Virus record (IMG/VR): IMGVR_UViG_3300032296_000793
Span: 1 to 31,552 of that record
Source: a virus
Lineage: Duplodnaviria; Caudoviricetes
Direction: 5' to 3' (one strand)
DNA: 31,552 nt
The position numbers and the translations under genes are program-made. Under the pieces are notes generated by a model, which did no database searches, was not told where the DNA came from, and saw only the letters and a program-made list of their open reading frames with translations. This document shows positions 972 to 8,519 of the stretch, piece after piece (position 1 is the first letter of the stretch; every line of letters starts with the position of its first letter).

Positions 972-1173
972 AGTAGTCAATGACCTTCTTGATATAGTCG
1001 TTGTGAATATACCACGAATAAGGAAACGCAATGTATCGACGTCCTATCGGTGACCATGATTTGTCTATTGATCCACAATAGAGGCACGATGAGTCATCAA
1101 ATTTGAATAGGTACTTCTTGTTGACGATGCACTCGAAGCCATCGTCCTCGGTAAGGTAAAAGCGTGGGTCCAT
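937..1173 (-). CDS. Hypothetical protein
   Basis: 78 aa ORF coupled to dnaB stop; one CxxC. Confidence 0.65.
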   Translation of the reverse strand: MDPRFYLTEDDGFECIVNKKYLFKFDDSSCLYCGSIDKSWSPIGRRYIAFPYSWYIHNDYIKKVIDYYEEMQDMPPTI

Positions 1174-2507
1174 TAGAATATGTTATGTGGGTTTAAGTCG
1201 GTGTATTTCATGATGCTTGGGTTGAAGCTTATCGGTACGGCTCCAGTTCCTCCGTTTCGTTGCTTCGATACTATGTACTCGGCATAACCTTGAATGCCTC
1301 CTTCTACTTGCATGCCGTAGTACTCCGGTCGGAAGAGGAAGGTCACGATGTCGGCATCCTGCTCAAGTGACCCCGACTCTCGCAGGTCGGATATCATCGG
1401 CTTCTTGTCGCTTCTTGATTCAACCGCTCGTGATAATTGCGCGAGTACGACCATAGGTATGTTATTCTCTTTCGCAATCAATTTTAGGTTTCTTGATATG
1501 GTTGAGAGTTCTTGTTCTCGATTAGCGTTACGATTGCCGTTCTTGCCTACCGACATCAGTTGTATATAGTCAACGAAGACCACTTCCACTCGATGCTTCG
1601 CGATGAGGTTCTTGACTTTATTGGACAAGTCGAAAACTGACAAGTCAGCCGAGTCATCTATATAGATGGGCAAGCGATTCACTTGGTCTAAATAGTGGTA
1701 GTATAGGCGAAGCGTGTCGTCGTCAAGTTTATACTTCATGAGTTTTTCGCTTGGGATACCGGTCATCATGCTCATCAGTCGATAGACGACTTGCACGCTG
1801 CTCATTTCGAGACTAAAGAAGGCGACTGGTGTACCTTGTTTCGCAAGTTCCAAGACTTCGGTTAAGGCCATGGCCGTCTTACCCATTCCGGGACGTCCTG
1901 CCATGTACATGAGGTCGGACTTTTGATGTCCTCCGATGAGCGTGTCGATGGCTTTGATACTTGTCGAGTAGCCACTGATAGCCTTGTTCGATAGTGATCG
2001 TGCCACGATGGACTCCGTTGCTTCCGGTGTGATGACCGATACATGGACGGCGTCACGCTTGTTGGCTCCTCCGAAGGTATTGTTGAGCGTGGTCAGGACT
2101 TCTCCGTATATGTCGAATATATCTACTCCAAGGTCGAATGCCTTGGTTGATACTTCTGCAGACAAGCGGATGAGCGTTCTGCGTATCCACAATTCGTTCA
2201 GTGTCAATGCCCACACTTCGAGGTTAGCCGATGAGGCAACACGGCTCGTCAAATTGGAGATATAAAGTTGATATCCTTCAAATTCCAATTTAAGCGTTTT
2301 AAGCGACTTAATCGTGGTAAGTAGGTCTATGGGTTCGCTTTTGCGAGATAGTTCAACCATGGCCTTAAAAATGCGTTTATTGCGGTCATCATAGAACTTC
2401 TCTTCAGTTAATTGGGTGGCGACCTTGGTCATGGCGTCACGATCGAGGAGGATTGCTCCAAGGATGACGGTCTCCAGTTCAAGGTCTTGAGGTAGTGATT
2501 GGTGCAT
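1173..2507 (-). CDS. dnaB: Replicative DNA helicase
   Basis: Likely start MHQSLPQDLELE at 2507; Walker A AGRPGMGKT, FSLEMS, VDYIQL, AQLSR, DLRESGSLEQDAD, KQRNG. Confidence 0.97.
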   Translation of the reverse strand: MHQSLPQDLELETVILGAILLDRDAMTKVATQLTEEKFYDDRNKRIFKAMVELSRKSEPIDLLTTIKSLKTLKLEFEGYQLYISNLTSRVASSANLEVWALTLNELWIRRTLIRLSAEVSTKAFDLGVDIFDIYGEVLTTLNNTFGGANKRDAVHVSVITPEATESIVARSLSNKAISGYSTSIKAIDTLIGGHQKSDLMYMAGRPGMGKTAMALTEVLELAKQGTPVAFFSLEMSSVQVVYRLMSMMTGIPSEKLMKYKLDDDTLRLYYHYLDQVNRLPIYIDDSADLSVFDLSNKVKNLIAKHRVEVVFVDYIQLMSVGKNGNRNANREQELSTISRNLKLIAKENNIPMVVLAQLSRAVESRSDKKPMISDLRESGSLEQDADIVTFLFRPEYYGMQVEGGIQGYAEYIVSKQRNGGTGAVPISFNPSIMKYTDLNPHNIF

Positions 2508-3120
2508 AGGTTGTATTCGTTGTAGGTTTTTGGGTTTTATACTTCTCATCGAACCATACTCCACGCATCTTCTGCTTCCAATTTCGCACGGGTTGACCTT
2601 TGGCGTCCCTCCAGTTTGCGTCTGCGTAGTAGTTAAATACATGGGTGGCGTGTGTCGATGGGTAGCCGTTCGCTTCAAAGTAGGCTATCACTTCGGGAAG
2701 AGTCGGAGCAATAAACTTGTCCTTCTCCTTTATTTTCTTATTTATATTTTTATTTACATCTTCATTTTCATTTTCCATATGTTCAACATATGTTTTAGAT
2801 ATGTTTTTCATATGTTTTTTCTTATTGGAATTCAATCGATTATTACGTCTTGATTCGGCAAATGCGGCACGTTTTAAGACTTCAATGCGCAAGCGTTCGT
2901 TATATAATTGACCATCTTCATCGACTTCAAACTTGACACGAACGGAGGCGAAAATCTCACTTGATACACATATCTTCATCATATGTTTATCGGTTATTGA
3001 GCCTTTACTTGCTTGGTGGCATAGGCATCGTATATACGCACCAACTTCATCGTTGGTCATATCATCAGTACCTACTAAAAAATCTTGATAATAGAAGAGA
3101 AATGCTGGGTCTTTAGCCAT
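2479..3120 (-). CDS. Phage replication initiator (DUF1376/YdaU-like N-terminus)
   Basis: MAKDPAFLFY...EVGAYIRCLCHQ N-terminus, low-complexity linker, C-terminal FIAPTLPEV...YY...NWKQ; directly upstream of dnaB. Confidence 0.85.
   Translation of the reverse strand: MAKDPAFLFYYQDFLVGTDDMTNDEVGAYIRCLCHQASKGSITDKHMMKICVSSEIFASVRVKFEVDEDGQLYNERLRIEVLKRAAFAESRRNNRLNSNKKKHMKNISKTYVEHMENENEDVNKNINKKIKEKDKFIAPTLPEVIAYFEANGYPSTHATHVFNYYADANWRDAKGQPVRNWKQKMRGVWFDEKYKTQKPTTNTTYAPITTSRP
2725..2822. promoter_or_regulatory. Putative replication origin: four (C/G)ATATGTT iterons at 11-bp period plus adjacent AT-rich tract
   Basis: Iterons start at 2776, 2787, 2798, 2809 inside the initiator gene (lambda-O-like layout). 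Confidence 0.7.
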
Positions 3121-3211
3121 AAATAAATACCCACCGACACACGCAAAGGCGTACCCTTGACCGATTGGTCTTCGGCAATGCGGTATCGATGGGATTTATA
3201 ATGTTTTTCAT
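3113..3211 (-). CDS. Putative 32-aa leader peptide (uORF) overlapping the initiator start
   Basis: MKNIINPIDTALPKTNRSRVRLCVCRWVFIYG*; stop lies within ATGGCTAA of the initiator. Confidence 0.4.
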   Translation of the reverse strand: MKNIINPIDTALPKTNRSRVRLCVCRWVFIYG

Positions 3212-3221
3212 TAGGGTACGC
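3130..3221 (-). ncRNA. Structured cis-regulatory leader RNA (interleaved helices, pseudoknot or switch)
   Basis: GCGUACCCU/AGGGUACGC 9-bp helix; CCCAUCGAUAC-CGCA/UGCG-U-GUGUCGGUGGG 11+4-bp helix with G-U pairs only on the minus strand; internal GACC-AAUC-GGUC hairpin. Confidence 0.65.
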
Positions 3222-3235
3222 GATGCAAATGTGAA

Positions 3236-3940
3236 TCAAGAATTAGGTAAAGTCAACCACTGATTGACGATTTCCATTTTTATTTCTTGCGCCTTCTCGA
3301 TGGACTGGAGCAAGTCCTCCGCATCTTGAATCGAGAAAAGAATCGGACATACGTGTACCATACGATGCTCCGGTTGACGAGGGTCGAATGATGCAAACAA
3401 CCACATCGGCATCTTGTGGACGATCATGTTCAACATAATTTGCCAATAGTAGTCGGGCGCGATGTCCTTCAAGGCTTCGCTATCGATGACCTTGCTATGT
3501 TCGTAGTGATTGACTGAATTGAATGGACACTTCACTTCGATTCCCACCTGCATTCCTTCATAGTCTATAAACGCATCGGGACTGCATCCAGTATAATCGT
3601 TGAACAACTTGAAGGCAGGCTTCAACACCAGCGTCTCACGATCGAGATTCATTTTCTTCACCACTTGCTCGATAGCCGTCTGCTCCCATTCGTTGCCCCA
3701 ATCGATTGCACGACCATAGGCATCGTCGCTTGATTGATTGGTGATGACCTCCATAGCCTTCTTGGTGATATATGTCATCGCGGTCTGCGAGAATAGACCT
3801 GCCTCACGTGCCTCTTTGCTTTTCGGCTTGGTCATTAAAGCAGATATGCCGCTTCCAGTAAAGCGACCGAGTCGTAATCGTGACCACGCCTCCGATTGTT
3901 GAGCGGCGTGGATTAATGCGTCTTGAATGTATGGGTTCAT
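3236..3940 (-). CDS. YqaJ/lambda-type exonuclease
   Basis: QQSEAWSRLRLGRFTGS, WGNEWE, GCSPD, EVKCP, YYWQ, SFDPR motifs. Confidence 0.93.
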   Translation of the reverse strand: MNPYIQDALIHAAQQSEAWSRLRLGRFTGSGISALMTKPKSKEAREAGLFSQTAMTYITKKAMEVITNQSSDDAYGRAIDWGNEWEQTAIEQVVKKMNLDRETLVLKPAFKLFNDYTGCSPDAFIDYEGMQVGIEVKCPFNSVNHYEHSKVIDSEALKDIAPDYYWQIMLNMIVHKMPMWLFASFDPRQPEHRMVHVCPILFSIQDAEDLLQSIEKAQEIKMEIVNQWLTLPNS

Positions 3941-5865: not shown

Positions 5866-5894
5866 AAAGAGAGGTCAACGGACCTCTTTTTTTT
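5866..5894. terminator. Intrinsic (probably bidirectional) terminator after terL
   Basis: AGAGGTC-AACG-GACCTCT hairpin with T8 on + strand and T-rich tail on - strand. Confidence 0.8.
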
Positions 5895-7188
5895 ATGCGT
5901 ATGAGTAGCGGCCGTAGTTCGGGAAGAGTTCAAAGTACATTCGCATCATAATCATATCGGCGTAGTCAGGCGAAAGGCCATGTGTCTTTTGAATCTCATC
6001 CTTACCGGTCACGCTCAACTTCCCATCACCGTCTATGTTCTTGCGTCGAATCATGTCGAGTTCCTTCGTGATGGTGTCACGATGCTCCAGTGGGAAGAAG
6101 ACCTCATTCAACTCAATCTTCTCTGCAAGTTTGAAGTAACACTCGGCCTTGAGGTTAGTGAATCGCAGGGGTTGAGTGGCTCGCGATCCATTGCGGAACT
6201 CTCGAATTTTGGATACGTCGACCACTCCACTACCTAAACCATCGGCATCACCGATGCAATTCGACAACTTGATGTGTCGAGTATAGGCAAGGTCACCTAT
6301 CACACGAGCGACCTCGTCGACCTTCTTGCGTCTCAACTCAATAATCTCAATCAACGCCATACCACGCCAAATACCTATCACGGTTCTATCCTTCCCCAAT
6401 CGAGCAATGTCCGCAGTCAAGTACAACTCGCCTTGATTCGGATGGTCCCGGAAGCATCGCAGGACGTCATCGGTCGAGAATAGGTGGTCTTGAGTCTCGT
6501 CAAATTTCCAATCACCTTCAAGTAGTCGCTTGCGGTCGACCTCCGGTAGCAGAGAGAGGGTCTTGTGATACGATTCCGGAAGATGGATATTGTCTCCTGC
6601 CTTGGCTTGGATGAATGCATACTCCTTGGGAAGTTCTCCCTTCGCCCAAGGTGCGTAAAATTCGTTATACAACCAACCTTTCGTTGGATTGCATGTCATC
6701 AATCCCTTCGGTTTTAAATCATACTCCTTCAACTTGAAACGGACACGCGACCGCAATATGTCGATGGCCTTCTTGGATACTTGAGAAACCTCATCAACCG
6801 CCCAATCAGTCAACTCATAACCTCCAAGTGAATCAAAGGAAGGGTCGGATGGTCTCAACTCGAGGTCTTTTAGTATAACCTCCGAACCATTCCAAAAACG
6901 AATGATAGACGATTGCTGATTGTACTCATAATTTTTCCCTGCTTTAAGTCCATACATCGCACACACCTCAAAAAATGTCTTTAAGGTGGTCTTCTTCAGC
7001 GTATCTAATTTGGAACGACCAATCAGTCCACGAGTGCCTTTATATTTCAATCGTCGCTGAATCATCCATGCGCATAGCGTGAATGACTTCGAGCCTCCTG
7101 CGGCTCCTCCAAAAAGAACAACCTCCGAGTCACTGTCGTTGGCAAGTGATCGGAGGCATTCAAGTTGTTTGGGTAAGAATTCAATCAT
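5893..7188 (-). CDS. terL: Terminase large subunit
   Basis: Walker A GGAAGGSKS, Walker B WAVDE, coupling motif TCNP, RLLEGDW, nuclease ADIAR and SPDYADM. Confidence 0.95.
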   Translation of the reverse strand: MIEFLPKQLECLRSLANDSDSEVVLFGGAAGGSKSFTLCAWMIQRRLKYKGTRGLIGRSKLDTLKKTTLKTFFEVCAMYGLKAGKNYEYNQQSSIIRFWNGSEVILKDLELRPSDPSFDSLGGYELTDWAVDEVSQVSKKAIDILRSRVRFKLKEYDLKPKGLMTCNPTKGWLYNEFYAPWAKGELPKEYAFIQAKAGDNIHLPESYHKTLSLLPEVDRKRLLEGDWKFDETQDHLFSTDDVLRCFRDHPNQGELYLTADIARLGKDRTVIGIWRGMALIEIIELRRKKVDEVARVIGDLAYTRHIKLSNCIGDADGLGSGVVDVSKIREFRNGSRATQPLRFTNLKAECYFKLAEKIELNEVFFPLEHRDTITKELDMIRRKNIDGDGKLSVTGKDEIQKTHGLSPDYADMIMMRMYFELFPNYGRYSYA

Positions 7189-7720: not shown

Positions 7721-7909
7721 TTATAGATTACGTGTGATATCTGCTATAGATAGACCGGTGATATCCGCGAGTCGCTTCAGGTCGCTCAACTGCATCGCAT
7801 TCGGGTTCTTCACCCATCGGTGCGCAGTCATCCGGGTGACCTTCATCCGCTCCGCGAAGAGGGTTTTGGTACCGAAGTGGTCGAGAATTATGTTTTCGAG
7901 TTGACTCAT
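7721..7909 (-). CDS. Cro/XRE-like HTH regulator
   Basis: Start MSQLENII at 7909; TKTLFAERMKVTRMTAHRWVKNP helix-turn-helix pattern. Confidence 0.8.
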   Translation of the reverse strand: MSQLENIILDHFGTKTLFAERMKVTRMTAHRWVKNPNAMQLSDLKRLADITGLSIADITRNL

Positions 7910-7931
7910 GTCTACTATTGACGTAGGTTTG
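7901..7931 (+). promoter_or_regulatory. Rightward sigma-A promoter for the sigma/late unit
   Basis: TTG (7901-7903)-N20-TAGGTTTG (7924-7931). Confidence 0.6.
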
Positions 7932-7932
7932 A

Positions 7933-7964
7933 CAAAGATATGTAACTTAATTGATGCAAAGCAA
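7933..7964 (-). promoter_or_regulatory. Leftward sigma-A promoter for the HTH-terL unit with degenerate operator
   Basis: Minus strand TTG-N21-TATCTTTG; TGTAAC-N6-GATGCA at 7941-7958. Confidence 0.7.
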
Positions 7965-7967
7965 GGC

Positions 7968-8519
7968 GTGAACGCAAATAAACTCGATAAGTCATTGACT
8001 GAACTGATGCCGGTGTGGCGAAGGTTCGCTCGTGGCCTCGTCAAGAATACCGTCAACGGCGACGACTTGCTGCAGGAAACGCTACTCAAGTGCATGGAGA
8101 ACCAAGGAGCCAAAATGCATGAACTCGCGCAATCAGGTCACCTCTTCACATACGTCAACCGATGCCTCTACACGATGGCTATTGATTCATCAAGCCGATA
8201 CGGCATGAAGTACCGGAAGTTCGCGACTGGATGGGACACGTTCTCAACTCAACACGAGAAGGAACCGGAGCAGCCATGGCTCGGAAGTCGCATCGACAAC
8301 GAGTACCTCGACGCATATATCTCCTTGATGCCGGACATTGACGCCATCATGCTGCGTCTCTACATCATGGACGACTTCTCCTATCAAAAGGTGAGTGAAC
8401 ACACCGGCATTCCCATCAAATACCTATATAAACGGGTCGAAAAGGCCATAAAAAAGATAAGAACTAATGTCACTAAACGTCCCTCCTGCCATACGGATGA
8501 AGAGATACGACCTATGTAA
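7968..8519 (+). CDS. ECF-like sigma factor (probable late-gene activator)
   Basis: Region 2 DDLLQETLLK and region 4 FSYQKVSEHTGIPIKYLYKRVEKAIKKIR; GTG 7968 chosen because it lies downstream of the promoter. Confidence 0.8.
   Translation: MNANKLDKSLTELMPVWRRFARGLVKNTVNGDDLLQETLLKCMENQGAKMHELAQSGHLFTYVNRCLYTMAIDSSSRYGMKYRKFATGWDTFSTQHEKEPEQPWLGSRIDNEYLDAYISLMPDIDAIMLRLYIMDDFSYQKVSEHTGIPIKYLYKRVEKAIKKIRTNVTKRPSCHTDEEIRPM

Follow-up and report, generated by a model that had tools for sequence, protein, structure and literature searches.

A covarying leader RNA at the head of phage replication modules, and its possible action as a transcription attenuator

The minus strand of a 31,552-base virus record (the window, by which we mean this whole stretch of DNA) encodes a conserved, covarying structured leader RNA directly before a probable replication initiator gene. 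The leader is real and stands at the head of phage replication modules, and a mechanism for it is proposed here. Judged by its predicted folds, it is likely an on/off switch for replication genes. With a probability of roughly one half, it would be a kinetic transcription attenuator for the initiator gene.

The window carries terminase, portal, tail, endolysin and sigma-factor genes. The order on its minus strand is a YqaJ-like exonuclease gene, the leader element, a gene for a 213-aa protein, a DnaB helicase gene and NinG. The leader and its neighbors comprise the following features.

3236..3940, minus strand: YqaJ/RecE-like exonuclease gene upstream of the leader (Pfam YqaJ, E 1e-12)
3254..3257, minus strand: −33-like box, GTTG by sequence, one mismatch to TTTG, 20 nt before the −7 box
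3226..3233, minus strand: −7 box of the Bacteroidota primary-sigma type; CACATTTG is a variant of TAnnTTTG
3213..3221, minus strand: a, a strand of 9 nt that pairs with a′ and is predicted to form the 5′ end of the transcript
3113..3211, minus strand: upstream ORF (uORF) of 32 codons, its stop inside the initiator's AUGGCUAA
3179..3193, minus strand: b, 5′ arm of the long hairpin, pairing with b′
3174..3177, minus strand: UGCC, predicted second partner of a′ (3155-3152) when a is unpaired
3159..3170, minus strand: hairpin c, 4 bp and a 4-nt loop ending in an invariant C
3149..3157, minus strand: a′, complement of a, in the loop of the b:b′ hairpin
3130..3145, minus strand: b′, 3′ arm of the long hairpin, with GGG at its end
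3121..3129, minus strand: tract rich in U (7 U of 9) that separates the base of the hairpin from the initiator AUG; termination is predicted here
2479..3120, minus strand: probable replication initiator, 213 aa, DUF1376-like N-terminus (PHROG 'primosomal protein', E 7e-8)
1173..2678, minus strand: DnaB-like helicase ORF downstream of the initiator (Pfam DnaB_C, E 2e-84)

Helix a:a′ consists of nine Watson-Crick pairs and b:b′ of 15 pairs including two U·G, with one U bulged; b′ ends 9 nt before the initiator AUG (3120). The score of the a-b-a′-b′ arrangement, −44.1 kcal/mol, was the best on either strand of the window and was reached by none of 2000 dinucleotide shuffles. Plain folding alone was modest, with z −1.97 for the minus and −1.51 for the plus strand. 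An earlier note on this DNA had given the places of the helices, their 9-nt distance to the AUG and a −7-like box just upstream; every listed feature was found at its position, the box being CACATTTG at 3233-3226. The U-rich tract (3129-3121), the −33-like GTTG and UGCC (3177-3174) are added here. The same note had suggested a comparison with Rfam. Rfam 15 gave no match at the gathering threshold in the window or in 20 homologous loci, and at E≤10 the window gave four chance matches, none of them on the leader.

The 213-aa protein is called the initiator because of its PHROG and DUF1376 matches and its place before DnaB, and a replication initiator is what its sequence suggests. Its own match to DUF1376 is weak (E 0.0066, below the cut-off); 23 of 27 aligned initiator homologues matched DUF1376 at E≤0.05. 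A search of 50,697 cultured or annotated phage records for an initiator homologue returned one weak, unannotated match and thus no model phage for experiments. The promoter type points to a host in the Bacteroidota. Two contigs in one lake metatranscriptome, both from relatives, cover only 3288-3619 in the exonuclease gene, the 3′ end of which overlaps the −33 region of the leader promoter. No integrase was matched in PHROGs among 43 ORFs of the window and 63 ORFs of two complete relatives. The window genome encodes one Cro/C1-type HTH gene. This gene (62 aa, 7721-7909, minus strand) and the sigma-factor gene (7908-8519, plus strand) start back to back with no spacer, and their junction is the divergence point of the two transcription arms. 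The large terminase gene (5893-7188, minus strand) shares its arm and its direction with the replication genes and is set apart from the plus-strand small terminase and structural genes; the same was seen in genomes G005 and G007.

To collect relatives, we used a degenerate pattern on b and UGCC, which found at least 119 viral loci. Together with the window and other initiator loci there were at least 130 matches, of which six were dropped at record ends. The 124 full-length matches gave, among the matches listed, 75 distinct leaders, which are kin and not independent samples; they were aligned as A2 with a mean identity of 79%. The pattern fixed b in part and also UGCC, and left a, a′, c and b′ free. 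Figures for the three helices in A2 were 99.5% of cells paired with two-sided changes in six of nine pairs (a:a′), 99.8% with two-sided changes in 7 of 15 (b:b′) and 100% with two-sided changes in four of four (hairpin c), so that 17 of the 28 pairs changed on both sides within the 75 relatives. Four of five covariation measures were reached by none of 500 shuffles and the fifth by 18. Controls with slid partners were paired in 28-46% of cells, against 93.8% without sliding, and a three-pair extension of b was paired in only 38.7%. The earlier note had proposed covariation among homologs as a check, and all three helices covary across the 75 relatives. A covariance model built from A2 found five further members at E≤9e-5 (L229, L230, L233, L287 and L232), all on the sense strand.

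The oppositions in A2 included 187 G·U and 0 A·C, and therefore selection acts on the minus-strand RNA, as the earlier note had supposed from the window. The same count largely refutes a reading at the DNA level, in which the inverted repeats are operator half-sites or a cruciform: 50 of the G·U lie in a:a′ itself. The window's a:a′ is indeed a perfect inverted repeat, and a Cro/C1-type HTH protein is encoded in the genome. However, strict hits of the layout (below) fall on the sense strand only, and the 75 relatives hold 17 distinct a:a′ codes with a kept in register with a′. We find this reading hardly credible.

Outside the search pattern the invariant letters are the C in the loop of hairpin c (75/75), the C after a′ and one G in a′. 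Of the four loop letters of hairpin c (window 3159-3170), the last is always C and the other three vary. The helix order a-b-c-c′-a′-b′ resembles P1-P2-P3 of HDV, and an HDV-like or other self-cleaving ribozyme, cutting before G3221, would also account for the invariant G1-C pair and the invariant C in the linker before b′. However, this is very improbable. The L3 consensus of HDV occurred in none of the 75 leaders and the element has no Rfam match. G1 stands at the start predicted from the promoter, so nothing precedes it to be cleaved off. The a′-b′ linker is 3 nt (CUU in 67/75, otherwise CAU, CGU, CCU or CGC) and has no room for P1.1 or a J4/2 strand; an HDV-like signature was not found. 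HDV-like and theta ribozymes are described as a nested double pseudoknot that includes P1.1, the catalytic C being the first letter of the J4/2 strand (PMC10879173).

The start of the transcript was predicted from the promoter, for which a consensus with −33 and −7 boxes is given for Bacteroidota primary promoters (PMC7366714). In all 75 relatives 4 nt separate the −7 box from the first G of a: 67 have TAnnTTTG, five TAnnATTG, two TAnnTTCG and one CAnnTTTG. The last is the window alone, and such a box may be weak. Exact TTTG stands 19-21 nt before the −7 box in 63/74 relatives and in 0/74 at a control spacing of 24-26. Because the boxes are of the Bacteroidota type, the transcript is predicted to begin with a, its first base being G3221. 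A generic promoter and terminator scan, built for sigma-70 and for loops of up to 8 nt, returned nothing at the leader.

The following parts recur together as a cassette: the promoter, strand a as the predicted 5′ terminus, an AUG, the long hairpin whose loop contains a′, a U-rich tract and the first gene of the replication module. The gene after the cassette in the 75 relatives is DUF1376-like in 25, of the MREST/MKKSF/MKTSF type in 17 (DUF6291 in the three proteins tested), of a third type in nine, with C-terminal PHROG matches in common with the first two, and something else in 24, including small ORFs, SNF2 helicases, a methyltransferase and GIY-YIG nucleases. The earlier note had the leader gating MAKDPAF-type initiators; its place at the head of the replication module stands, but other gene types are found there too. 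An initiator-type gene lies within about 450 nt after a cassette in 10/10 near-complete relatives. Two of these (G008 and G002) carry two cassettes each, with differing a codes, which is expected by chance given 17 codes. The cassettes of G008 (C1:1234 and 3608, minus strand) flank a 751-aa ORF with a start of the SNF2-helicase type, and those of G002 (C1:735 and 31871, plus strand) flank one extra gene, the second copy being cut at the record end. Both arrangements look like gene insertion through recombination at the cassette, as far as the sequences tell.

At locus L001 the initiator is 86% identical to that of the window, and both promoter and leader are missing there; the exonuclease ORF reaches its stop codon within ATGGCTAA of the initiator (L001:2240-2320). 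This junction indicates that the cassette was gained or lost there as a block, and its absence that the element is not essential in L001. Locus L002 (2883-3345) has the window's leader before an initiator whose N-terminal part is only 45% identical, which points to recombination right at the start codon. Seven loci (L015, L019, L020, L024, L026, L027 and L043) hold an ORF of 167-174 aa, of homing-endonuclease type by eye, between a kissing-loop cassette, about 540-560 nt upstream, and the initiator. In six others (L311, L315, L349, L357, L385 and L407) the first ORF after the cassette is 69-78 aa long and belongs to several families; these ORFs between cassette and initiator gave no convincing Pfam match and are candidate regulators.

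The layout reaches beyond the close relatives. A wider set of 308 loci included 302 with a recognizable initiator start, 298 of them with enough upstream DNA, in 197 clusters. The a-b-a′-b′ layout was found directly upstream of the initiator in 43/197 clusters; 20 rounds of shuffling gave 1.45 on average and never more than 4, and the controls gave 3/388 in coding windows and 11/197 on the reverse strand. Thresholds were chosen after viewing the data, and among the 43, L185, L187 and L211 are probably false positives. With the promoter and the U tract as further demands, a stricter detector placed 26 elements directly before the initiator and 23 further upstream in 196 loci, with none downstream of the initiator and none on the other strand. 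The 23 precede a gene inserted before the initiator. The elements take two forms. The one seen in the window has a free a and an a′ placed in a long loop. In the other, a lies in a small hairpin loop and a′ is a loop of 6-9 nt, giving a kissing pair (24/43 by a flanking-stem rule), and the median b:b′ loop is 8 nt. The A2 model (R1) did not detect the hairpin-loop form (best E 0.12), and the two forms are detectably alike in layout alone.

Folding predictions suggest an order of formation, two states and a second partner for a′. ViennaRNA cannot fold pseudoknots, so its energies compare nested states only. A transcript ended just after a′ folds with a:a′ in 75/75. Blocking a gives a b:b′ fold of greater stability (mean −34.0 vs −20.6 kcal/mol), which takes the lead only after 12-17 of the 19 nt downstream of a′ have been made. 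In that a-blocked fold the CC of UGCC pairs with the GG of a′ in 74/75. GG is present at this place of a′ in 75/75, and its partners in a vary between C and U. UGCC was part of the search pattern, yet it is also present in ten members from the protein search; as it is invariant, covariation lends UGCC:a′ no support. Two predicted partners for one strand favor a switch.

We weighed this against a static pseudoknot in which a, b and c are all formed without switching, as a protein site, a 5′ stabilizer or a small RNA released by termination. The three helices do covary in the same molecules, the invariant c-loop C, C after a′ and a′ G hint at tertiary contacts, and linkers of 22 nt and 24 nt should be long enough, on steric reasoning, for the helices to coexist in a released RNA. 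However, a′ has its conserved second predicted partner, a ribosome on the conserved AUG would destroy the fold, and the hairpin-loop form keeps the same layout without detectable likeness of sequence, which does not suit one protein reading one shape. The static reading is quite unlikely.

In the proposed attenuator, a would pair with a′ as soon as a′ is made, and the long b:b′ hairpin would be kept from closing. With a:a′ formed (ON), RNA polymerase would read on into the initiator gene. When a is occupied (OFF), b:b′ would close before the U-rich tract and transcription would end at about 100 nt, a stop that would fall just before the initiator AUG. The block may be topological: b′, tethered to the polymerase, would have to wind about 1.4 turns round b inside the loop closed by a:a′. 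For designed RNAs, PMC1802593 reports long-lived co-transcriptional traps that a 7-nt antisense oligo can redirect, as well as 'entangled helix' barriers. In read-through RNA the ribosome-loading region would, in addition, lie under the b:b′ hairpin. Translation of the uORF may modulate the outcome, with a ribosome covering a when initiating and melting b when elongating; the part of PMC7858274 covered here, on transcription-translation coupling, makes no mention of Bacteroidota.

As in a terminator, the window has a G+C-rich stem base (CCC/GGG) directly followed by 7 U of 9, with the tract broken by A. At least five U of nine were present in 74/75 close relatives. A U-rich tract follows the stem base in 35/43 layout positives, against 11% at matched distances in element-less loci. 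In the hairpin-loop form the tract comes directly after the stem in 22/24, and the distance from stem to AUG ranges from 9 to 21 nt in 23/24. Against termination, the tract is interrupted in the window's form (UAUUUAUUU), and the loop is about 33 nt in the window vs 3-8 nt in ordinary terminators; a simple terminator scan limited to loops of up to 8 nt found no terminator at the leader. The stem ends 8-13 nt before the AUG in 72/75 close relatives, which fits translational control equally well. The earlier note had proposed a translational switch; the U-rich tract tied to the hairpin base points at least equally to termination.

Such a translational switch would resemble that of IncI plasmids. 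The b:b′ hairpin would hide the ribosome-loading region of the initiator, and a ribosome on the uORF would melt b. When that ribosome stops, a′ would be freed for a, which would hold the region open, with a restart in the window at AUGGCUAA. This logic matches that described for ColIb-P9 (PMC4705826). Adenines at −11 to −15 favor translation in the phylum (PMC7366714), and the stem covers that stretch as well as ending near the AUG. The AUG of the uORF lies 9-12 nt after G1 in 75/75 relatives, and the uORF covers all of b in 74/75, with the stop 6-7 nt past b in 58/75, some 50 nt short of the initiation region. Among five close relatives with a MAKDPA start, it ends in or 1 nt before the initiator start in four. 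Its length is 10 codons in one relative, 13 in 58, 19 in three, 20 in nine, 29 in one, 32 in one and 33 in two, in three frames, and this variation of length and frame indicates that no peptide is conserved. A stop overlapping the initiator's AUGGCUAA was seen in 3/75. The 32-codon uORF of the earlier note is thus present in the window, and its AUG is general, but its length and overlap are not.

Of the 39 distant elements left after dereplication at 70%, 25 lack an AUG between a and b, which counts against an IncI-like switch. In the 14 with an AUG, four uORFs end within 10 nt of the next start, vs 1/28 shifted frames (p 0.035), and ten read through b, vs 11/28 (p 0.05); in a long-loop subset picked post hoc, 7/7 read through b, vs 4/14. 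Stops between the AUG and b of close relatives give no measure of selection, because the TGA of ATGA always falls in the +1 frame and the +2 frame is free of stops in 26/31. The uORF is probably used in the long-loop form, to judge from these sequences; it is not universal, and its coupling to the initiator appears as a feature of a lineage. In three loci (L083, L095 and L104) the upstream AUG is in frame with the next gene and free of stops, so that it could start an N-terminally longer protein through the hairpin. The IncI-like switch leaves unexplained the U-rich tract after the stem base, which is present at any distance from the AUG. Moreover, a:a′ is predicted to form without a ribosome, and the antisense RNA that is the off-signal of IncI had no counterpart in our search for a promoter (below). 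As the main rival, the IncI-like switch is possible but tentative, and we prefer the attenuator.

For the off-signal, an antisense −7 box of the primary-sigma type was sought inside the leader and found in 1/98 contexts. No antisense primary-sigma promoter is conserved, and the antisense RNA that the earlier note had thought worth looking for was not borne out by this search. The nearest antisense box of the window is a variant at 2910, inside the initiator. A third exact 9-mer copy of a or a′ was absent from the window and ten near-complete relatives (11 genomes); copies with one mismatch numbered 3-9 in the own genome vs 0-14 in others. Own a:a′ pairs average −14.0 kcal/mol and cross-code pairs −6.5, and the two cassettes of G008 cross-pair at −3.9 and −4.6 vs −13.6 and −13.1 kcal/mol with their own partners. 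Among the paired columns, entropy peaks in the middle of a (1.73, 1.52 and 1.26 bits), vs 0.49-0.96 in the c stem. On a tree made from the same columns, parsimony gave 10 and 10 changes in the middle of a, and in unpaired positions 9 and 15 in the loop and up to 13 in the spacer. The middle of the code would thus change as often as unpaired positions and more than the c stem, which fits either drift or diversification.

These codes could serve a feedback or exclusion made of RNA alone from one promoter: stopped transcripts lacking their 5′ end would capture a on new transcripts of the same code through the a′ hairpin loop and force them to stop. We consider this speculative and unlikely; the terminated RNA's own a and UGCC would compete for a′, and the search for an integrase gave no match. 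If it were true, target and repressor would both derive from a single 100-nt leader, needing neither an antisense gene nor a third site nor a protein, and the 17 codes together with the kissing-loop form would define groups of phages that shut off their own or each other's replication genes.

A search of mostly open-access full texts found no paper describing the leader, and nothing similar is named in the main texts of Weinberg 2010 (PMC2864571), Weinberg 2017 (PMC5737381) and bioRxiv 10.64898/2026.10.21.760802. The table of Fremin et al. 2023 (PMC10690425) lists unnamed candidates DNAVirus_187, _4653, _4859, _230 and _704, 49-124 nt long, from aquatic, mostly freshwater tailed phages and at most 25 nt upstream of DUF1376/YdaU, DUF4373 or HTH_36/Phage_rep_O genes. 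DNAVirus_187 has 49 nt, 122 sequences and two Bacteroidetes host calls, and DNAVirus_4653 has 124 nt and 43 sequences. The table marks these candidates as without a terminator, and the main text does not mention the five. Judged by their table descriptions, an overlap with the leader is fairly likely, and they may be pieces of it.

RNA control of replication initiators is known in plasmids and in P4, each with a separate antisense RNA or a third site. For the cassette described here neither was found. In abundant small aquatic phages it moves among no fewer than three families of initiator-type genes, and it exists in two forms without detectable likeness of sequence. Being short and having natural compensatory variants, the cassette is directly open to test. 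Such tests would show whether a pseudoknot can serve as a natural topological antiterminator, and whether short pairing codes time or restrict phage replication.

In the antisense-driven attenuator of plasmid pT181, a pairing within the rep leader prevents termination by competing with a terminator that stands directly upstream of rep. The predicted competition in the phage leader is of the same kind. Unlike in pT181, no countertranscript promoter was found at the leader, and its competing helices interleave and do not share one strand. The P1/P7 c4 RNA is a comparison system alongside the P4 CI RNA. As with these, the leader is a phage RNA with short complementary elements before replication genes, and premature termination is its likely output. 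However, the leader has no match to Rfam C4, which is listed in PMC2864571. P4, whose CI RNA with seqA and seqC is treated in section 21 of PMC4825925, needs three sites, one upstream and one downstream of CI, whereas the leader has a and a′ only. CI and c4 act as processed trans RNAs; for the leader such a role is speculative.

The rep mRNA leader of I-complex plasmids (ColIb-P9 repZ with its leader peptide and Inc RNA, and IncB repBA; PMC4705826, PMC10286972, PMC10724649) is similar in that long-range pairing is set against an inhibitory hairpin beside the start of a replication gene, a competition that is predicted for the phage leader. In both, an upstream ORF runs over the hairpin, and in the window it ends at the initiator start. 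The differences are several. The phage leader belongs to a phage and not a plasmid, no antisense RNA promoter was found where a primary-sigma box was sought, and it has neither SD nor GUG start. Its uORF is optional in the wider group, its a is a free 5′ end and not a hairpin loop (a loop in the second form), and its a′ lies in the loop of the inhibitory hairpin, which a U-rich tract follows. The analogy to IncI1/IncB drawn by the earlier note is fair as a statement of how the leader may work, but not as to the antisense promoter. Because an antisense promoter and a third site were looked for and not found, the leader is a member of neither the I-complex nor the P4 group. By analogy, it appears to work like the I-complex rep leader and, in its output, like the termination by P4 CI.
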